Assembly: GCA_902515775.1 (NCBI GenBank)
Contig: CABXVU010000004.1
Location: forward strand, 2,746-66,745
Source of the DNA: an uncultured SAR86 cluster bacterium
Lineage (GTDB): Bacteria > Pseudomonadota > Gammaproteobacteria > Magnimaribacterales > D2472
Length of the DNA stretch: 64,000 bases
Reading direction: 5' to 3'
In this document: in pieces, positions 29,907 through 59,084 of the stretch
Layout: every line of letters starts with the position of its first letter
How positions within the stretch are numbered: position 1 is the stretch's first letter
Made by a program: the position numbers and the translations under genes
Notes under the pieces: model-generated
What the model saw: only the letters and a program-made list of their open reading frames with translations
Database searches by the model: none
What the model was told of the DNA's origin: nothing

Positions 29907-30593
29907 TCATCGCCTTGATAGAATAACGATCCAACGACCAAGGTTTAAAATGTCGGCTAGCGCAGCCGAAACATAGGTAAGGGCCGCTGCCCTCAGAATG
30001 CTGCTAACTGCTCTTTCGTTTGACTGCGATACGTAATTCCCCTCCCTTAATATAGGAAGAGCCTTGGAAAAACTTGCATCAAATTCAATTGGCAGAGTCA
30101 CCGCATGAACCATCATGCGAGCGATAAATCCGGATAGCCCAACGATAAGCAATAAAGAAAATGGCATTGGATGCCGTGTAATAATACCGATCACTGGCGA
30201 TAAAGAGATAATTAAAGCACTCCAACGGGCCACCTTATCAATAACGGGTACCATCTTTGTTCTAGTAGCCAGACGTTTATCACCTTGCTGATCCTGAATG
30301 GCATGTCCAACCTCATGTGCGGCAATTGCAATTGCTGTTAACGATTTGGATTCATAGTGCTCTCGCAAAAGCCTAACTTTTTTTTCAATTGGATCATAAT
30401 GATCTCCCAGCTCAGTTACTTCGACCGTCACATCTTTTAAAGAAAATCGCTCAATCAAATGCTTTGCAAGTTCTCCCCCAGTGCCTGGCATTTCAGGCTT
30501 TACAGTTGAATACCTCTTCATAACCAACTTCACCCATAAAGATGGCCCAAATATTAGTGCTAGAACTATGAGCGCGCCGGCTGCTAAAACCAT
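29907..30593 (-). CDS. Membrane zinc metallopeptidase (YugP / Zn_peptidase_2-like)
   Basis: 228 aa with HEVGHAIQ, flanking TM helices and an AGGAG RBS. Confidence 0.75.
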   Translation of the reverse strand: MVLAAGALIVLALIFGPSLWVKLVMKRYSTVKPEMPGTGGELAKHLIERFSLKDVTVEVTELGDHYDPIEKKVRLLREHYESKSLTAIAIAAHEVGHAIQDQQGDKRLATRTKMVPVIDKVARWSALIISLSPVIGIITRHPMPFSLLLIVGLSGFIARMMVHAVTLPIEFDASFSKALPILREGNYVSQSNERAVSSILRAAALTYVSAALADILNLGRWIVILSRR

Positions 30594-30678
30594 GTTTGAT
30601 ACTCCTAAAATTTATTCTGCAAACGAAACAAATTTGCAACTATAAAGTTTATATAGTGATTTAATTTTATTTTAAAAG

Positions 30679-31476
30679 TTATCCATGTTTTTTTACTAAG
30701 TTTATCGCCCACTTTATTACATTTGGATTTTTCTCAGTATCAAAAATGAATTCTTGCCCAAACCCTTTATAGAAGATTCTAGATTCCTTCTCATTCTCCC
30801 ACTGCATTCTATTTAAAAATAATCCTTCTGTATTTGAAAAATATTCTGAGGGCAGCTTCCATCTAGATCGTGTTTTGTTTGCTTCGGTCAGAATTAAATC
30901 ATCATGTGTCTTTTTAAATAAACCGTGGCCCCTGTCAAAAACCTTTTTTTCATTTATCTCTAAAGTTTTTTTTCCTACATAGATAGTATTATTTGAAAAT
31001 TTAGAGGTGTCTCCAAATCCATGAGGATGAGCAATGTTCTTTTCTTTGAGATATGTGATAATTGCCTCTGATCCTTCTATGATTTCTTTTATTTGTAACC
31101 ATCCAAACAGATGATGTAAATCTCTTCCTTTAATTGAAAAGTTCTTAAACCATCCAAAGAATAAAAATAAGTCTCCTGGACCTACACTATTATTTTTTAA
31201 TTCGGTTTGAGAGGAACTTGCTTGACCGAAAATACCGATATCTTCATTTAGAAGTGGGTCATTGTGACAATAATCTGAAGGTTTGATCTTAGATGACACC
31301 TCTTTTAATAATTCTATGCCAGATGTTCCACAAAAGTTTAAATCTTCGTACTTTTTTGGAGAGGGATGATCTTGAGGAATCGGTATAGAAAAAATTCTTC
31401 CATCACTGAATATAGGTGAGGCGCTCCCCCCTGCTTTAGCATCAAATCCTTTTCTGCTTAGAATTATTCTTTTCAA
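30679..31476 (-). CDS. Conserved-looking hypothetical protein (no confident family)
   Basis: 265 aa with a TTG start. Soluble. Distinctive blocks: ILSRKGFDAKAGGSASPIF, GDLFLFFGWF, HHLFGWLQIKE. Confidence 0.5.
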   Translation of the reverse strand: MKRIILSRKGFDAKAGGSASPIFSDGRIFSIPIPQDHPSPKKYEDLNFCGTSGIELLKEVSSKIKPSDYCHNDPLLNEDIGIFGQASSSQTELKNNSVGPGDLFLFFGWFKNFSIKGRDLHHLFGWLQIKEIIEGSEAIITYLKEKNIAHPHGFGDTSKFSNNTIYVGKKTLEINEKKVFDRGHGLFKKTHDDLILTEANKTRSRWKLPSEYFSNTEGLFLNRMQWENEKESRIFYKGFGQEFIFDTEKNPNVIKWAINLVKKHG

Positions 31477-31507
31477 CTTATGAAATTAAAAAAACATGCC
31501 TATAAAT

Positions 31508-31525
31508 CAATTCCACCGTAACGGA
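31508..31525 (-). repeat. glmS 3'-end relic D (encodes SVTVE-L; stop lost)
   Basis: Plus strand caattccaccgtaacgga. The reverse complement reads tcc gtt acg gtg gaa ttg. It is followed at 31532-31542 by ttgaaatcact, the same 11-mer that sits beside the live glmS end at 35221-35231. Confidence 0.55.
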
Positions 31526-31559
31526 TTAAATTTGAAATCACTTTCATTGTCTTAATATA

Positions 31560-31850
31560 TTAAGTTATAAGCTTCGGTATTATTCCTAGTTGAGCCAGAA
31601 TACCAAAGATAATTAGCAATATAATGCTAGTGAGCGTTTTAAGGTTCTTCTGTTTAATAAATTCAAATAAGTCGTCTTCTATAAATTTTCTTATACAATC
31701 ATCAGCTTTACCCATCAACTTAACAGCTTTTCTTGTCCATTTGTCAGTCACATCAATTATTAACAAAGAAAATCCTGCAATGATAAGCCACACAAAACCA
31801 TTAAGAGTCATGTCGATTAGCCAACCTATAATCACCCAATTTATTTCCAT
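31560..31850 (-). CDS. Small membrane protein (module 1)
   Basis: 96 aa with N- and C-terminal TM helices. It is the only ORF between relics D and E. Confidence 0.45.
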   Translation of the reverse strand: MEINWVIIGWLIDMTLNGFVWLIIAGFSLLIIDVTDKWTRKAVKLMGKADDCIRKFIEDDLFEFIKQKNLKTLTSIILLIIFGILAQLGIIPKLIT

Positions 31851-31881
31851 TATTAAGCCCTAAAAAGCTAATTTTATTTTT

Positions 31882-31899
31882 CTACTCCGCGGTCATAGA
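31882..31899 (-). repeat. glmS 3'-end relic E (encodes SMTAE-stop)
   Basis: Plus strand ctactccgcggtcataga. The reverse complement reads tct atg acc gcg gag tag. The next codons (..S L I Y) share the taaact (S-L) block with relic A. Confidence 0.55.
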
Positions 31900-32018
31900 G
31901 TAGATTAAACTAACTACCTTTATTAAACCTCATGACTATTATACTTACAGTACTTTTTTTTAGACTTTTTCCTATCCATTTTTTTAAAAGAAAAGTGTTT
32001 TTCTAGTATCATATCGCC

Positions 32019-33134
32019 ATGAAAATAAATTCATTCACACCGCCAAATAGGATTTTAATGGGTCCCGGTCCATCTGATGTTTGCGACAGAGTTTTGGAGG
32101 CTATGGCTAGACCAACTATTGGTCATCTCGATCCTATTTTTATAACAATGATGGATGAAACAAAACAGTTACTTCAATATGCATTTCAAACACAGAATGA
32201 GTTAACTTTTGCCTTATCAGCTCCTGGTATGGCAGGAATGGAATCTTGCTTTGCAAATCTTGTTGAGCCTGATGATAAGGTAATTATTGCTAAAAATGGG
32301 TTCTTTGGCGAAAGAATGAAAGAGAATGTTGAGCGATTTGGCGGAATACCAATAGTTATTGATGATGAATGGGGAACAAAAGTAGACTTAAATAAAATTG
32401 AATCAGCCTTAAATGAACATAAGGATGCAAAAATTGTTGCTTCAGTTCATGCTGAAACCTCTACCGGGGCTCTTACAGATCCAAAATCAATTACAAAATT
32501 AGCACATGACCACGGATGTTTATCAATTGTAGATACTGTAACTGGTTTGGCTGGAGTTCCTTTAAAAGTAGATGAATGGGGAATTGACGCAATTTATTCT
32601 GGTACACAAAAGTGTTTGTCCGCTTCTCCTGGTTTATCGCCAATTAGTTTTAGTAATGCTGCAAAGGAAAAGATTAAGAATAGAAAATCAAAAGTAAAGA
32701 GTTGGTTTCATGATTTAAACTTAATCATGTCATATTGGGAAGGAGAAGGAGGCCGATCCTATCATCATACTGCACCAATAAATTCATTATATGGACTACA
32801 TGAAGCCTTGATTATGTTAAATGAAGAAGGCCTAGAAAATTCATGGAAAAGACATAAAGAGAACCATCTTCAACTCCGAGAGGGCTTAGAAAAATTAAAT
32901 ATTAAATTTTTAGTAAAAGAAGAGGACAGATTACCTCAATTAAATGCTATCTATATTCCTGATGGTGTAAATGATCTTGAATCAAGACAAAGACTGTTAA
33001 ACGAATTTAATCTCGAAATTGGAGCTGGTCTTGGAGTTCTTGCAGGAAAAGTTTGGCGAATTGGACTTATGGGACAATCTTCCAATAAAAAGAATATTGA
33101 ATATTGTTTAAACTCTCTTGCGGAAGTAATTTAA
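32019..33134 (+). CDS. Class V aminotransferase (alanine-glyoxylate / serine-pyruvate aminotransferase type)
   Basis: 371 aa with the PLP-lysine block SGTQKCLSASPGLSP and an N-terminal MGPGPS pattern. Confidence 0.8.
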   Translation: MKINSFTPPNRILMGPGPSDVCDRVLEAMARPTIGHLDPIFITMMDETKQLLQYAFQTQNELTFALSAPGMAGMESCFANLVEPDDKVIIAKNGFFGERMKENVERFGGIPIVIDDEWGTKVDLNKIESALNEHKDAKIVASVHAETSTGALTDPKSITKLAHDHGCLSIVDTVTGLAGVPLKVDEWGIDAIYSGTQKCLSASPGLSPISFSNAAKEKIKNRKSKVKSWFHDLNLIMSYWEGEGGRSYHHTAPINSLYGLHEALIMLNEEGLENSWKRHKENHLQLREGLEKLNIKFLVKEEDRLPQLNAIYIPDGVNDLESRQRLLNEFNLEIGAGLGVLAGKVWRIGLMGQSSNKKNIEYCLNSLAEVI

Positions 33135-33291
33135 AAATTATTAAATTCGCCATCTTCCAACCACTGTTAAAACCTGCTTTACCTTAACAGAGTATCCATA
33201 ACCAAATTCACATTTTTTATATATTTTTGCAAATAAAATATAACCAATAAGATCGGAATTAACCTTAATTTTTTAATTTATTTTGAATCTT

Positions 33292-33942
33292 CTATTTAAT
33301 CTGATTTCCATTAAAGTCATACTCCTCGATCACCCTAAGTATAGCTCCGTTTTGATATTCTATTTTTGACTTTAGTTGTCCGTTTTGATGGTATGTCACG
33401 GATATACCATGCAATTCCTCATCGTTGTTATATACTTCCTTCGATGCTATTTGACCGTTGTCATAATATGAAAATGATGTAAGAGTAACGGTTACGCCAT
33501 TTTTAACATTTTCTTTCCAGGATACTTGACCATATTCATAGCCAATCCATTCGCCCTCGTCAACACCATCAACTCTATTTCCTTCCATGGATGGAAAGCC
33601 TTCCATAAACTCGATATATTTTCCGTGCTCAAGTCCATTTTTATATCCAGTCTTAAATGAAAATAAGGTCCCACAGCCCTCATATCCCTCAAATGGTCCA
33701 TGAAGAAGCCCCCTTTTATATGACCCTGCCTCTATTGCACAAAATCCATATTCATCCTCATAGGTTACGAATCTTCCAGAAAAAGGAGTATTAGTATTTA
33801 CCTGATATTTCAAGCCCTGTCTTTCAACAAGTGATGACGAATTTATAGATTTATCTGCATATTTGATATACAAGGCTTCATTAGCCTGTAAATTTAGTAT
33901 TAAAAAAGCAAATAAAAACACATTTCTTGAAAGTATCTTCAT
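33292..33942 (-). CDS. Secreted MORN-variant repeat (YwqK-like) protein
   Basis: Repeats of the Y-x-NG-x-x-x-G type (YKNGLEHGKY, YHQNGQLKS, YQNG). I prefer the second ATG (MKILSRNVFLFAFLILNLQA) because a GGGGAA SD lies inside the first five codons of the 221-aa track ORF. Confidence 0.6.
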   Translation of the reverse strand: MKILSRNVFLFAFLILNLQANEALYIKYADKSINSSSLVERQGLKYQVNTNTPFSGRFVTYEDEYGFCAIEAGSYKRGLLHGPFEGYEGCGTLFSFKTGYKNGLEHGKYIEFMEGFPSMEGNRVDGVDEGEWIGYEYGQVSWKENVKNGVTVTLTSFSYYDNGQIASKEVYNNDEELHGISVTYHQNGQLKSKIEYQNGAILRVIEEYDFNGNQIK

Positions 33943-33999
33943 ATTTTCCCCACACAACTTAATAGTACTTTTATTTATTCTAACGCTATCTGTTAGATA

Positions 34000-34026
34000 T
34001 TTAAAATTACTCCGCCGTGACTGATT
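34000..34026 (-). repeat. glmS 3'-end relic A (27 nt, 26/27 identical to the live glmS end; encodes SVTAE-stop)
   Basis: tttaaaattactccGccgtgactgatt here versus tttaaaattactccAccgtgactgatt at 35233-35259. Confidence 0.85.
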
Positions 34027-34048
34027 GAAATAAACTCAACCTGTTTTT

Positions 34049-34318
34049 TTATAATTCAAAGGTCTCGTCTAGAATAAACATCTCAACACCGCCTGTTATT
34101 TTGTCCTCTGACATTGCCTCTGCAGTTGATGGATCATTAAATATTCTTACAAACTTATCAACATCATTTGTTTCAAAAACAGCAATTACTGTTTTATCAT
34201 TTGCTGTCCCCATATGTGCAAGAGAGACGCCCTGACTTTTAAATAAATCATCGTGAGTCTTAAACTTTTCTCTCCAGTGATCAACGCTCTCAACTTCTGC
34301 TCTTACTGCTATTAACAT
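34049..34318 (-). CDS. Small soluble hypothetical protein (ferredoxin-like alpha+beta pattern)
   Basis: 89 aa with an AAGGAG RBS upstream. I recognised no family. Confidence 0.5.
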   Translation of the reverse strand: MLIAVRAEVESVDHWREKFKTHDDLFKSQGVSLAHMGTANDKTVIAVFETNDVDKFVRIFNDPSTAEAMSEDKITGGVEMFILDETFEL

Positions 34319-34349
34319 TTAGTATCTCCTTAATAAATCATTGTTAATT

Positions 34350-34542
34350 ACTTTTTTATTCATAAACCTCTCCTAAGCAAAATAAAATTAATAATGCGGT
34401 TTAGAAAGGTTAATAATGCCACAAACCACCATTTGAATTGACCTCCATCTTCAAGAATAGATGTTAAGACAACTCCTAGAAAAACAGAATGAATAAACCA
34501 TCTTTTTTTTAAATATTTTACATTCTGTAAAAAGGACGTATT
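34350..34542 (-). pseudogene. Start-less 63-codon open frame encoding a two-TM-like peptide (possible gene remnant or non-canonical start)
   Basis: My own translation: NTSFLQNVKYLKKRWFIHSVFLGVVLTSILEDGGQFKWWFVALLTFLNRIINFILLRRGL-stop. There is no in-frame ATG/GTG/TTG; the only near-cognate codon is ATT at 34494. Confidence 0.25.
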
Positions 34543-34614
34543 TTAGAATTCTCAGTACTTATATAATAAATTCAAAACTTCTCACTATAATTTTATCAAC
34601 CAATAAATCTTTCT

Positions 34615-34632
34615 CTATTCAACTGTGACTGA
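34615..34632 (-). repeat. glmS 3'-end relic C (encodes SVTVE-stop with different codons)
   Basis: Plus strand ctattcaactgtgactga. The reverse complement reads tca gtc aca gtt gaa tag. Confidence 0.6.
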
Positions 34633-34636
34633 GTGT

Positions 34637-34652
34637 TTTTAAACAGTGATTT
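34637..34652. repeat. Left arm of the perfect 16-bp inverted repeat bracketing the ZnR-SWIM module
   Basis: ttttaaacagtgattt is the exact reverse complement of aaatcactgtttaaaa at 35224-35239. Confidence 0.9.
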
Positions 34653-34665
34653 GATTTTTTGCAAT

Positions 34666-35010
34666 TCATTTTTTCATTACAGATTTAAATTTTTGAAGAA
34701 CTATTTTCTTTTTGGCAGCAATTTCTTTTTTTATTTCTGCCTCTTGTTTTTTAATTTCTTCTAACTCAATCCACGCTTCTTCTAAATCACTTCCTGGTAA
34801 CCAAGATTTAATTTCATTAATTTGCGAATCATCTAGACCTATATACTTTTGTTTTTTCCCCTCAAAAACACTCATCCAGTGTTTGCAATGAGTTCCCATC
34901 GATCCTGCAGGACAATCACAAATGCATTTCAAATTTGTGCCACTCAAACTTATTGTTATGTTGTATGGTTGTGCTGCACTTCCTTGAACCTGATAACTAA
35001 TTTCTTTCAT
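34666..35010 (-). CDS. SWIM zinc-finger protein with C-terminal coiled coil
   Basis: 114 aa with the SWIM signature CxCx(n)CxH (CICDCPAGSMGTHCKH) after a beta-rich N-terminus, then a K/E-rich helix. Spaced 2 nt from the upstream ORF. Confidence 0.65.
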   Translation of the reverse strand: MKEISYQVQGSAAQPYNITISLSGTNLKCICDCPAGSMGTHCKHWMSVFEGKKQKYIGLDDSQINEIKSWLPGSDLEEAWIELEEIKKQEAEIKKEIAAKKKIVLQKFKSVMKK

Positions 35011-35012
35011 CT

Positions 35013-35219
35013 TTAAACATCTCTAGAGCAGAATCTACAAACTGTCGCATCTTTTTTTATATGCTCTTTGCAAAACTGGCACACTTTGTAACCACTTGGA
35101 CTTGCTAGTTGTTGGAAAAATACAACAACAAGGTGAAGCATTATTGATAAAAGTACTGCTGAACCCCATACGGAAATCATATATAAATGAAGTACTAAAA
35201 AAATGCCATGTATTATCAT
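35013..35219 (-). CDS. Small two-TM protein with C-terminal zinc ribbon
   Basis: 68 aa with two hydrophobic helices followed by CQFCKEHIKKDATVCRFC. Confidence 0.5.
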   Translation of the reverse strand: MIIHGIFLVLHLYMISVWGSAVLLSIMLHLVVVFFQQLASPSGYKVCQFCKEHIKKDATVCRFCSRDV

Positions 35220-35223
35220 CTTG

Positions 35224-35239
35224 AAATCACTGTTTAAAA
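35224..35239. repeat. Right arm of the 16-bp inverted repeat (abuts the glmS stop codon)
   Basis: aaatcactgtttaaaa, immediately next to the glmS TAA (35240-35242). Confidence 0.9.
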
Positions 35240-35259
35240 TTACTCCACCGTGACTGATT
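35233..35259 (-). repeat. Live glmS 3' end (copy B of the 27-nt repeat)
   Basis: tttaaaattactccaccgtgactgatt: the last 17 coding nt of glmS (K-SVTVE), the stop, and 7 nt downstream. Confidence 0.9.
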
Positions 35260-37066
35260 TAGCTAAGTTCCTTGGTTGATCTAAATCAGTGCCTCTTTGG
35301 CATGCAACTTGATATGCAAGAATTTGAAGTGGAATGGTATAAATAATTGGGGCTAACAATTCGCTACATTCTGGCATTTGAATGTATTCACCTCTTTCGA
35401 TTTTAATTTTTGAATTTTCTCCACCAAATACATATAGCGTGCCGCCCCTTGCCTTTACCTCCTCTAAGTTGGAGACTAGTTTTTCAGTTAAAGTGTTTTC
35501 AGGGGATAATGCCACCACTGGAATTTGATCATCGACCAATGCCAATGGCCCGTGTTTCAGCTCTCCTGCTGGGTAAGCCTCAGCGTGAATGTATGAAATT
35601 TCTTTCAGTTTCAGTGCGCCTTCTTGAACAATTGGAAAAAACATTCCCCTTCCTAGGAATAAAGCATTGTGTTTATCAGCTATATTAGGAACGATCCTCA
35701 TGATCTCATTTGATAATTTCAATGTCTTATCGATTATCTCTGGCAAATTTCTTAATTCGTTTACAAGTTTTTTTCTTAATTTTTTATCTTTATTTAAGCT
35801 TTTTGCAATAGACATGGCTAACAACATTAAACCTGCCAGCTGAGTAGTAAATGCCTTTGTTGATGCAACGCCAATTTCTGGGCCTGCATTAGTAAAAAGA
35901 ACATGCTCTGATTCTCTAGCCAACGAGCTGGTTGGAACGTTACAGATTGACAATGTGCTTAAATAGTTTTTCTCTTTTGCGTATTTGAGGGCAGCCAAAG
36001 TATCTGCGGTTTCTCCGGATTGTGAAATGGTAACAAACAATGTGCCTTCTTCTACAAGAGGCTCTCTATATCTATACTCACTTGCAAAATCTACATAACA
36101 TGGAATTTTAGCTATTCGCTCAAACCAAAACCTTCCTACTTTGCCTGCATGTAAGCTTGTTCCACATGCAACAAACTGAATTCTTTTAATCTTACTAAAA
36201 AGCTCTGATGAGCCTAAACCAAATATATTATCTAATACGTCCTCATCTCCAAGTTTCCCATTTATGGTATTGGCAACAGCATCAGGCTGTTCATATATTT
36301 CTTTCTCCATAAAGTGAGAATATTTTCCTTTAGTAACTGTATTAACTGCTATGTCTATTTCAGTTACATCTCTTTTTACAGGGGAACTCTTTCCGTCGAA
36401 CACTTGATAACTTTGCTTAGTTATTTCTGCAACATCGCCATCTTCAAGAAATACAAACTCATTGGTAAGTTGTGATAAAGCTAAGGGGTCCGAAGCAGCA
36501 AAATTTTCCTCTAAGCCTAACCCAATCAATAATGGGCTTTTGTTTCTTGCAACAACTAATCTGTTTTTATTTTTAATATGAATGGCCGCTATGGCGTAAG
36601 CGCCATCAAGTTCTTTTATAGCGTCATGCATGGCCGACAGCAAATCGCCGCTTGATTGTATGTGTTGATGAAGTAAGTGTGCTATGACCTCTGAGTCAGT
36701 TTCAGATTGAAAAGCATATCCGACCTTTTTTAATTTTTCTATAAGCTCAAGGTAGTTTTCTATAATTCCATTGTGAACAATGTGAACCTCTCCACTTGAT
36801 GCGTGTGGGTGTGCATTTTCTTTAGAAGGTTGACCGTGAGTTGCCCAACGAGTGTGAGCAATTCCAAGTTTGCTTTTTGGCCGATGCTCAATCATCCCAT
36901 CTTCGAGCAAACTTACTTTTCCCAAAGTTCTTAAATTAAAAATACTGTCTTTTTGATGGAGAGCTATACCTGCTGAGTCATAACCACGATACTCCATTTT
37001 ATGAAGGCCTTGAACTAATAACTTTCCTACGTTGCGAGATGATGCCGCCCCTATAATTCCACACAT
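35240..37066 (-). CDS. glmS: Glutamine--fructose-6-phosphate aminotransferase
   Basis: 608 aa with the N-terminal MCGIIGA nucleophile, SIS domains and the C-terminal KSVTVE. Confidence 0.97.
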   Translation of the reverse strand: MCGIIGAASSRNVGKLLVQGLHKMEYRGYDSAGIALHQKDSIFNLRTLGKVSLLEDGMIEHRPKSKLGIAHTRWATHGQPSKENAHPHASSGEVHIVHNGIIENYLELIEKLKKVGYAFQSETDSEVIAHLLHQHIQSSGDLLSAMHDAIKELDGAYAIAAIHIKNKNRLVVARNKSPLLIGLGLEENFAASDPLALSQLTNEFVFLEDGDVAEITKQSYQVFDGKSSPVKRDVTEIDIAVNTVTKGKYSHFMEKEIYEQPDAVANTINGKLGDEDVLDNIFGLGSSELFSKIKRIQFVACGTSLHAGKVGRFWFERIAKIPCYVDFASEYRYREPLVEEGTLFVTISQSGETADTLAALKYAKEKNYLSTLSICNVPTSSLARESEHVLFTNAGPEIGVASTKAFTTQLAGLMLLAMSIAKSLNKDKKLRKKLVNELRNLPEIIDKTLKLSNEIMRIVPNIADKHNALFLGRGMFFPIVQEGALKLKEISYIHAEAYPAGELKHGPLALVDDQIPVVALSPENTLTEKLVSNLEEVKARGGTLYVFGGENSKIKIERGEYIQMPECSELLAPIIYTIPLQILAYQVACQRGTDLDQPRNLAKSVTVE

Positions 37067-53110: not shown

Positions 53111-54400
53111 TTGAAATTTTGGTCTGAATGCACTGAAAAACTTGAAGCTAAGCTATCGCAAGAAGAATTTAATACCTGGATTAAGCCCTTAAAAGCTGAT
53201 ATTCGTGAAAATAATTTAGAAATAAGTGCCCCGAATGACTTTGTACTGACCTATGTTAGAGAAAATCTCGGACAAATTATAGAAAACTTAGTAAGTAAAT
53301 CTAATGAATCACTAATTGTAAAGTTTAAAACACTAGATAAGTCAACATTTGTCGATAAACTTAATGTCTCAGAAGAAAATAAGCCTTCTCTTGTCCAAAA
53401 TTTTACATTTAGCAGTTTTGTAGAGGGAAAATCTAACCACATGGCCCTTGCTGCAGCCAAACAGGTGGCAGCAAATCCTAAAGGTGATTATAACCCACTG
53501 TTCATATATGGTGGGGTTGGGCTAGGAAAAACACATCTTATGCATGCTGTTGGAAACGAAATCCTGAGCGCAGATACTACAAAGAGGATAGTTTATGTTC
53601 ATTCAGAAAAGTTTGTAGCAGACATGGTAAAAGCTCTTCAATTAGGTGCTATGAGCGAGTTTAAAGAGTTTTACAGGAACGCTGATGCTCTATTAATTGA
53701 TGATATTCAGTTTTTTGCTGGCAAAGAACAGTCACAAGAGGAGTTTTTTCACACTTTTAACACTCTTCTAGATAGAAATCATCAAATGATACTTACATGT
53801 GATAAGTACCCTAAGGAGATAGATGGTCTCGAAGAGCGCTTAAAATCAAGGCTTGGCTGGGGCTTGCCTGTAATTATAGAGCCCCCTGAGCTTGAAACTC
53901 GTGCAGCAGTCCTTCTAAGTAAGGCTAATTCTATGGGGGTAAAGCTTCCAAATGATTGCGCTATTTATATTGCACAAAGAATTAGGTCTAATATTAGAGA
54001 GTTAGAGGGAGCACTTAAAAGGGTTGTTGCAAACTCAAGGTTTACTGATCAAGAGATCGATGTTCCTTTTGTGAAAGATGCATTAAAAGATTTGTTTGTT
54101 ATCTCAGCAAAGATGGTAAGCATTGATAATATTCAAAAAACTGTTGCTGAGTATTACAACATTAAACTATCTGATCTTCTTTCTAAAAGAAGAAGCCGGT
54201 CAATCACCCGACCAAGACAATTGGCTATGGCGCTTACAAAATCATTAACCAATCACAGCTTACCAGAAATAGGTGAGGCCTTTAATGGTAGAGACCATAC
54301 AACTGTGCTGCATGCGTGTAGTAAAATAAAAGAACTAAGAAAAGAAATTCCATCCCTTGAAGAAGACTATAGAAATTTGAATAGGACACTTACAAACTAA
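53111..54400 (+). CDS. dnaA: Chromosomal replication initiator DnaA
   Basis: 429 aa with a TTG start, a GGAGG RBS 9 nt upstream, the AAA+ motif [13 protein letters not shown] and a C-terminal DNA-binding domain ([10 protein letters not shown]). Confidence 0.95.
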
Positions 54401-55498
54401 ATGGAAATAACCTTAAAAAAAGAGGATATTGTTTCTGCTCTTAATATTACACTGGGGGTTGTTGAAAAGAGACAAACACTTCCAATTCTTGCAAATGTTT
54501 TATTCGAGGTAGATGAAAATTCATTTAAATTAACAGCCACAGATTTAGAATCAGAGGTTACTACCACGGGTTCAATACTAGGCATGGAATCGGTTGGAAA
54601 AATAACAACATCTGCTAAAAAATTAAACGAGCTTTGCAGATTAATTCCTGACGGAGAGGAAATTAGTTTGTCATTAAGATCTGAAAAATTGAATATTAAA
54701 ACTAAAAATGGTAAGTACTTACTATCAACTCTACCCAGTGCAGACTTTCCTATTTTTGATATTGATCCCGGTGACAACCCTTTAGTAATTCCTGCCAAAG
54801 ACCTACAAGAACTTATAAAAAATACATCTTTTGCAATGGGAAACCAAGATTGGCGACATTATTTGAATGGTCTTTTTATTTCAATTGGCGATAGACAAAT
54901 CACTGCTGTTTCGACTGATGCCCATAGATTGGCTGTAGCTAACATTGCCATAAATTCTGATCACTCGTTTTCCGGCATTATTCCAAGAAAATCTATAAAT
55001 GAGATGGCCAAATTTCTTTCTGATCAACCCGGTGATGCTGAGCTCAAAATTAATGATTCCTCATTAGAACTTGTGGTTGGAAATCTAATTTTTAAAAGTA
55101 AATTAATTGATGGAAAGTTTCCAGATTATCAACAGGTTATTCCGTCTGGCGAGAGCTCTATGTTAGAAATTAACGTTAAGGAATTTTCAGAATGTCTCAG
55201 TAGAGTCTCCATTTTATCTAGTGAAAAATATAAAGGCGTTAGATTAATTACTTCATCAGATGGAGTAAGAATTTCTGCTAATAATCCAGAGCAAGAAGAG
55301 GCTGAAGAATTCTTCCCAGCTTCTTACAAGGGTGAAGATTTAGATATAGCTTTCAATGTTACCTATCTTCAAGAAATAATGTCACACATGCAAACAGATA
55401 CATGTAATATAAATTTCTTTGGATCTGATAAAAGCTGCCTGCTAACACCGCCAAGCAGCGATAGCCCTAAATATGTTGTTATGCCACTCCTAATATAG
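54401..55498 (+). CDS. dnaN: DNA polymerase III beta sliding clamp
   Basis: 365 aa. Its ATG directly abuts the dnaA TAA. Confidence 0.93.
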   Translation: MEITLKKEDIVSALNITLGVVEKRQTLPILANVLFEVDENSFKLTATDLESEVTTTGSILGMESVGKITTSAKKLNELCRLIPDGEEISLSLRSEKLNIKTKNGKYLLSTLPSADFPIFDIDPGDNPLVIPAKDLQELIKNTSFAMGNQDWRHYLNGLFISIGDRQITAVSTDAHRLAVANIAINSDHSFSGIIPRKSINEMAKFLSDQPGDAELKINDSSLELVVGNLIFKSKLIDGKFPDYQQVIPSGESSMLEINVKEFSECLSRVSILSSEKYKGVRLITSSDGVRISANNPEQEEAEEFFPASYKGEDLDIAFNVTYLQEIMSHMQTDTCNINFFGSDKSCLLTPPSSDSPKYVVMPLLI

Positions 55499-55501
55499 GT
55501 A

Positions 55502-59084
<3,583 letters not shown>

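Follow-up and report, generated by a model that had tools for sequence, protein, structure and literature searches.

The whole stretch of DNA analysed here (the window, 64,000 nucleotides from an uncultured SAR86 cluster bacterium) carries on its minus strand the genes atpD, atpC, glmU and glmS in this order, followed by two short open reading frames, ORF68 and ORF114, which are 2 nt apart (Table 1). The two ORFs are enclosed by a 16-bp inverted repeat, TTTTAAACAGTGATTT at the left arm being the exact reverse complement of the right arm, and exact copies of this 16-mer occur at just these two places within the 64-kb window. The right arm abuts the stop codon of glmS and is separated by 4 nt from the ATG of ORF68; at the other end, 13 nt lie between the ORF114 stop codon and the left arm, which in turn adjoins a copy of the glmS 3′ end, referred to as relic C. 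Further copies of the glmS end are found at 34007, 31883 and 31503. The exact repeat, the spacings and the ORFs are as given in a first-pass annotation, which described a coupled two-gene module and offered four readings of it, i.e., a non-autonomous mobile cassette, an invertible segment, a split terminator hairpin or 5′–3′ pairing of the mRNA. An exact 16-nt inverted repeat within 1 kb was obtained in 8.5% of Markov-simulated windows, so the repeat on its own is merely suggestive and the case rests on its recurrence. Identical arms bracket the same genes in the independent contigs L002, L003, L012, L013, L031 and L041 (L-numbers label the comparison loci, of which 80 were fetched), the 5′ arm preceding ORF68 or ORF114 in the first five of these. 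Among the four readings, the non-autonomous mobile cassette is the right one.

Table 1. Features of the region behind glmS in the window, with forward-strand coordinates.
Feature	Position	Strand	Description
glmS	35240..37066	-	From the ORF list; last 18 nt plus stop codon (35240-35257, TCAGTCACGGTGGAGTAA) are the attachment core anchoring the array
5′ arm of cassette (IR-R)	35224..35239	-	TTTTAAACAGTGATTT in gene direction; right half of palindromic site
ORF68	35013..35219	-	Hydrophobic N-terminus and CxxC...CxxC zinc ribbon; its own single-gene cassette originally
Fusion scar	35011..35012	-	Place of the deleted ~59-nt palindrome (IR-L, core, IR-R, few flanking bases)
ORF114	34666..35010	-	N-terminal SWIM-type zinc finger, then long C-terminal helix; its own single-gene cassette originally
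3′ arm of cassette (IR-L)	34637..34652	-	AAATCACTGTTTAAAA in gene direction; left half of palindromic site
Displaced glmS-end core (relic C)	34615..34636	-	ACAC-TCAGTCACAGTTGAATAG; hybrid
Degenerate 5′ arm of next, older cassette (putative)	34599..34614	-	AGAAAGATTTATTGGT; resembles AAGAAAACAGTGATTT of L003 with a 5-nt deletion
Whole cassette array	30620..35260	-	Between glmS and conserved flank gene (29907-30593)
Further sites in array	33998-34028; 33160-33194 (weak); 31881-31909; 31510-31536; ~30625-30662 (decayed, terminal)		

ORF68 encodes a hydrophobic N-terminus of ~35 residues and a C-terminal CxxC-x11-CxxC motif, in agreement with the zinc ribbon that had been assigned to it, and its Pfam zinc-ribbon matches are weak. 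It resembles PHROG 8436 (E 3.5e-6), and its weak matches are phage families without an assigned function. Two close homologues of ORF68, both near-identical, and 29 close homologues of ORF114 were found, and among five ORF68 variants synonymous changes far exceed non-synonymous ones (e.g., 10 vs. 1). Both ORFs look like real genes, ORF68 by this excess of synonymous changes and ORF114 by the invariant residues given below. Neither of them has a match in NCBIfam.

ORF114 contains a CxC...CxH motif, whose residues C31, C33, C42 and H44 are invariant in 23 homologues. The earlier SWIM zinc-finger call stands at the level of the family, with PF04434 matching 33 of 48 sampled relatives (best E 3.5e-6), but not for the window protein itself, which gives no Pfam SWIM match at E<=0.1. 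A profile search returned 1026 cluster representatives at E<=1e-3, mostly stand-alone proteins of ~110 aa. Judged from these matches, ORF114 belongs to the SWIM-finger family (PF04434). Its AlphaFold2 (AF2) model is confident (mean pLDDT 86.9) and comprises three strands, short helices and a long C-terminal helix, with the CxC predicted at the end of strand 3 and the CxH at the start of a helix; the model has no significant match among solved structures. Part of PDC-S62, a candidate defence protein, is similar to ORF114 (E 2.8e-7), as is PHROG 13130; viral contigs gave no relatives of ORF114. One relative, a 174-aa ORF in another glmS array (L011 4001-4525, on a 257-kb contig), matches in its first 79 residues alone (95% identity) and is thus a truncated or fused copy. 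Another, 82% identical, rides on elements of ~6-8 kb in L005-L010 (e.g., L005 354-4169), which have a GC content of 35-37% and encode a P4-type tyrosine integrase, a Rep-like protein (YagK_YfjJ_C / REP_ORF2-G2P) and a DUF723 protein. These elements contain no glmS-type site and no tRNA gene and thus do not explain the array.

The site to which the inverted repeat belongs is found again between all cassettes of the glmS array, a point that the first-pass annotation missed. Read in the direction of glmS, the general site is AAATCAC-N9-N4-TCAGTCACGGTGGA-N4′-N9′-GTGATTT, 54 nt in all, with arms of 20 nt on each side of a 14-nt centre; the four bases adjoining each arm travel with the cassette. The suspected link to glmS is real. 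The centre of the site equals the last codons of glmS, and the sites recur behind this gene. The half-site pattern was found in 26 stretches when one genome per species was scanned, mostly in SAR86 single-cell genomes and metagenome-assembled genomes (MAGs), and a metagenome scan for the full site added 40 more stretches. A profile built from the sites detected 183 of them in 67 loci, nearly all from SAR86, with an average identity of ~81%, and viral contigs gave no match to the site pattern. Many of the supporting contigs are short metagenome assemblies or MAGs, in which the joining of strains across the shared 54-nt repeat could mimic a new cassette context; single-cell genomes, however, also contain such matched-arm arrays.

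The arrays, widespread in SAR86, are uniform in their polarity. None of the 183 sites lies on the opposite strand within its own locus, and every copy of the cassette has the same orientation, which makes an invertible segment unlikely. The segments between sites (n = 116) have a median length of 554 nt, with a range of 132-2844, and the longest ORF runs in the same direction as the sites and glmS in 100 of them and in the opposite direction in 7, the other 9 having no ORF of at least 40 aa. Some cassettes in L037 (2531-3004) have just ~140-220 nt between sites and yet code for mini-proteins (42-59 aa) that have one hydrophobic helix each. The same site, with a first cassette of 132-141 nt behind glmS, is also found in L028 (3094-3333) and L038 (1453-1701), on contigs with a GC content of ~49-51% that are labelled as an Acidobacteria MAG and Pseudomonadales and whose glmS is just 46-53% identical. 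The system may extend past low-GC SAR86, or these bins may be mislabelled. Defence-like cargo is present in other SAR86 arrays (L079 425-1855, L034 5654-6978 and L036 5010-7227) and includes a Schlafen/AlbA_2 protein, an HNH endonuclease beside a HIT-like protein (the latter named by reading its sequence, not by a scan), two EEP-family nucleases and DUF6994.

Site-profile matches within the 64-kb window are confined to 31.5-35.3 kb. The profile matches the glmS end itself at 35260-35224 (E 2e-10), and the glmS-end core is repeated downstream. The cargo of the array comprises ORF89, a MORN lipoprotein, a class-V aminotransferase on the opposite strand, ORF96 and Nmad3 (Pfam), and seven other loci also have the conserved flank gene on the far side of their arrays. 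The Nmad3-domain protein (PF18754, E 6e-54; 30679-31476, minus strand) is the last cassette of the array, flanked by the two decayed sites at 31510-31536 and ~30625-30662; it is absent from the otherwise similar arrangement of L017 and present in L034 at 77% identity. The class-V aminotransferase (32019-33134, plus strand) lies between the weak site and the site at 31881-31909. Its counterpart in L017 shares 95% identity and is followed straight away by ORF96 and the flank gene, with no Nmad3; the aminotransferase may be a long-standing and by now fixed constituent of the island. Beyond relic C, the ~280 nt upstream of ORF89 (34320-34600, minus strand) hold just short broken reading frames and may be a decayed gene for a small membrane protein. 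An Rfam search over 28-38 kb of the window returned nothing relevant. Farther away, four consecutive plus-strand ORFs of 429, 365, 359 and 642 aa (53111-58515) look like dnaA-dnaN-recF-gyrB, and further ORFs hold the gidA/gidB/parAB positions upstream of the atp operon, all of these being named by lengths and gene order alone; with a dnaA-dnaN-recF-gyrB-like order, the array would be near the replication origin.

Both genes between the arms are also found singly. ORF114 alone lies between the same 16-mer pair in L002 and L003, in the latter directly behind the glmS gene, and ORF68 alone lies between the same arms in L013/L014 and L041. The fused form is present in the window, L012 and L031, with the identical junction GATGTTTAAAG-ATGAAAG, whereas in the single-gene forms the sequence is GATGTTTAAAT-TAAATCAC...(site) and (site)...GTGATTTATAG-ATGAAAG. 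Comparison of the fused junctions (window, L012, L031) with the single-gene ones (L013, L041, L003, L002) thus identifies the 2-nt gap as the scar of a deleted palindrome of ~59 nt, and the unit of ORF68 and ORF114 is, on the evidence of these junctions, two adjacent cassettes fused by loss of the recombination site between them. The palindrome was probably deleted via slippage across its hairpin; the two cassettes would have had identical arms before the fusion, which would since have spread as one cassette. Since each gene occurs alone with the same arms, the supposed two-gene module is neither a functional nor a coupled pair, and beyond the fusion nothing ties ORF68 to ORF114.

A fixed two-gene operon, be it a toxin/partner or a sensor pair, whose repeat works in cis, whether as an invertible switch, as a split terminator or through 5′–3′ mRNA pairing, would account for the 2-nt spacing of the ORFs and for the conservation of the pair in three sources (window, L012 and L031). 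However, both genes are known alone with the same arms, relatives of ORF114 occur on other elements without a neighbouring ORF68, the orientation is identical in all copies, and no terminator-like site was found, so such an operon is extremely unlikely. Neither the split terminator nor the mRNA pairing proposed earlier is needed to explain the repeat, and the two junctions of the window, as they lie, do not fold.

The position of strand exchange was deduced from how the two arms covary. Junctions were reconstituted by joining the 3′ half-site of a cassette to its own 5′ half-site, as in a circle, and the 71 distinct junctions so obtained were compared with 63 distinct array sites as they lie. 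In the reconstituted junctions, 84.6% of the cells were paired, vs. 76.6% after shuffling (0/500), whereas the sites as they lie gave 75.0% vs. 75.2% (334/500). Cells that had changed on both sides numbered 153 vs. 63 shuffled (0/500) in the reconstituted junctions and 63 vs. 60 (190/500) in the sites as they lie, with covariation scores of 0.250 vs. 0.121 (0/500) and 0.127 vs. 0.129 (288/500), respectively. Similarly, the complementarity of the N9 segments was 7.28/9 across one cassette, vs. 5.14/9 within one site and 5.02 for random pairing. The arms thus covary across the cassette and not within the site, showing that the inherited unit is arm–ORF–arm and that exchange takes place between the arms. 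This pattern places the crossover at the centre of the site and would imply a circular intermediate. The reconstituted junctions fold as strong hairpins (-15.5 to -20.7 kcal/mol, z -7.6 to -10).

A comparison of the window with L031 locates the exchange more precisely. The cassette is 97.2% identical in nucleotide sequence between the two, the adjacent glmS 68.9% and the downstream DNA 50%; the fused cassette has moved between divergent genomes. The identity begins at TGGAGTAA on the left side and ends on the right side after CACTCAGTCAC, inside relic C, i.e., at positions 28-30 of 54, which is the dyad centre. The exchange points of the left and right junctions are 1 nt apart (positions 28 and 29 or later), and this offset requires either a staggered overlap region or a later mutation. 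Relic C is, as far as this alignment tells, a hybrid, its left part travelling with the cassette and its right part having been left by the previous occupant. The degenerate arm behind relic C was assigned by reading the window against L003 and would be the decayed 5′ arm of that older cassette. Matched halves on either side of the insert, together with a central exchange, are the expected trace of the integration of a circle by a site-specific recombinase.

These junctions bear on two further explanations. In the first, cassettes are exchanged by ordinary homologous recombination, e.g., after DNA uptake, with the repeats between cassettes as short homology anchors and with no dedicated recombinase or circle. 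The mean site identity of ~81% offers some homology for this, and no recombinase was found near the arrays; however, the matched inverted arms on both sides of a cassette and the break of similarity at the dyad centre are left unexplained, and the shared central segment of just ~14-22 nt is short for RecA-dependent exchange. We consider this explanation unlikely. In the second, the unit is a non-autonomous, MITE-like transposon with terminal inverted repeats of 16-20 bp and a preferred target that is duplicated on insertion. Terminal inverted repeats flanked by direct repeats of the glmS end would suit such an element, as would the lack of a mobility gene in the unit. However, the flanking repeats (~18-22 nt) always have the same sequence and are hybrids instead of identical duplications; in the window, the right copy differs from the left at 4 of the last 10 nt, though the cassette is 97% conserved. 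Moreover, the four bases adjoining each arm travel with the cassette, the arm sequences vary between cassettes, and no transposase was seen, which renders a transposon of this type very improbable.

We regard it as likely that a palindromic recombination site of ~54 bp marks the boundaries of small mobile cassettes behind glmS and that each arm is one half of this site. In outline, a small promoterless cassette would exist, at least transiently, as a circle with an intact site, for which the predicted junction is ...AATTGCAAAAAATC-AAATCACTGTTTAAAA-ACAC-TCAGTCACGGTGGAGTAA-TTTTAAACAGTGATTT-CAAGATGATAATA. A site-specific recombinase would then swap strands at the dyad centre with its exact counterpart in the last nucleotides of glmS; this gene would be regenerated, the right arm would come to form the 5′ end of the cassette and the left arm its 3′ end, and the old glmS end would be displaced downstream as a relic. 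Repeated rounds would stack cassettes in one orientation between glmS and the conserved flank gene, and the resulting array would probably depend on read-through from glmS for its transcription. Neither a circle nor an empty site was seen directly in the examined loci.

The enzyme itself was sought with phmmer, using XerD, Hin and a P4-type integrase as seeds. Neither the 64-kb window nor any of the 80 fetched loci yielded a tyrosine or serine recombinase; with the XerD and Hin seeds used, the sensitivity of this search is limited, and it does not prove the absence of a serine recombinase. One weak match, an ORF of ~140 aa in L034, was discarded since it had no integrase features on inspection. 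The ten largest ORFs inside the arrays were assigned by Pfam to nucleases, a methyltransferase, Schlafen/AlbA_2 and DUF6994, with no recombinase among them. With none in the window or the loci, the enzyme must act in trans. The attP/attB geometry of large serine recombinases was also considered but is not claimed here, as it is at odds with the 17-nt offset of the AAATCA motif in glmS.

The arrays resemble those of integrons in several respects: the cassettes are short, lack promoters and mostly hold a single ORF, they all face the same way behind a fixed point of entry, and they are set apart by imperfect palindromes whose outer parts are conserved and whose inner parts are variable but complementary. 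Cassettes also move between genomes and, as is known from integrons, become fused by loss of a recombination site (PMC4670013). A classical integron whose integrase gene lies elsewhere, leaving a CALIN-type cluster of attC sites, would share these features. In contrast to integrons, however, cassettes enter here at the glmS 3′ end instead of at an attI adjoining intI, there is no integrase nearby and no tyrosine recombinase in the window, and the site has a conserved, non-palindromic centre that equals the glmS end. An attC remains nearly intact on the 3′ side of its cassette, with the crossover at the R′ edge, whereas here the crossover is central and leaves half a site at each end of the cassette. 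The arms accordingly covary across cassettes and not within sites, which is the opposite of attC. RYYYAAC and GTTRRRY boxes were not seen on reading the sites; in the aligned sites, the arms are AAATCAC-TGTTYAAAN and its complement, and GTTTAAA and GTTCAAA misfit GTTRRRY. The attC-like reading of the site was rejected by this inspection, and an integron in this sense is even less probable than the MITE-like transposon.

The closest geometry is that of the staphylococcal cassette chromosome (SCC) at rlmH/orfX, which likewise integrates into the 3′ end of a conserved gene and regenerates it. Composite SCC islands form tandem arrays with direct repeats of the gene end and adjacent inverted repeats, and they contain recombinase-less members, with psiSCC as small as 2.6 kb (PMC9430635). 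However, SCC elements are kilobases to tens of kilobases long, with many genes and with Ccr large serine recombinases in the island, whereas the cassettes described here measure 0.13-2.8 kb and usually have one ORF, with no recombinase seen in any array; the host phylum is different, and the target is glmS instead of rlmH. As defining features fail in both cases, integrons and SCC are only the closest analogues.

Tycheposons and related elements at tRNA genes build a flexible island in a streamlined ocean bacterium by repeated site-specific integration that leaves partial copies of the target (10.1101/2020.12.28.424599). The glmS arrays share with them the ecological role and the additive island, and the 82%-identical relative of ORF114 rides on small integrase-plus-Rep elements. 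In contrast, tycheposons have their own tyrosine recombinase and replication module, are kilobases long and target tRNA/tmRNA genes, whereas the cassettes here have neither module and target glmS. Tn7-like elements at attTn7 likewise take the conserved glmS end as their safe-harbour landmark and have nothing else in common with the cassettes. The insertion point of Tn7 lies ~23-25 bp downstream of glmS, where 5 bp are duplicated; its ends are TGT...ACA with TnsB repeats, and the element encodes TnsABCD. In the arrays, in contrast, insertion is at the stop codon, the repeated core is 18-22 nt, and no tns genes were found on reading the ORFs across the window. Xer sites (dif/pdif) were also tried and rejected, as their 28-bp 11-6-11 architecture is not matched and a CATAA/TTATG inner motif is missing, both by reading against a dif consensus. 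No prior description of glmS or SAR86 cassette arrays was found in a literature search whose coverage of papers was incomplete.

On balance, we lean toward the view that SAR86 possesses a second, integron-independent system of cassette capture, in which a trans-acting recombinase, possibly of a new type, would recombine the centre of a 54-bp site with the end of glmS and thereby stock an array with mini-genes, including defence-like ones, that circulate between lineages sharing just ~69% identity in glmS. If true, this would be integron-like logic in an independent form, with entry at a housekeeping gene, exchange in the middle of the site and a site geometry unlike that of integrons. The proposal lends itself to direct testing, the site being short and clearly delimited and its circular junctions being predictable to the base, and a site that targets the near-universal end of glmS could be of interest for genome engineering. 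SAR86 is among the most abundant bacterial groups of the surface ocean. For Prochlorococcus, tycheposons have shown how ocean bacteria with streamlined genomes and few plasmids or prophages may exchange genes; the glmS cassette system, if true, would be a comparable route of gene exchange for SAR86.
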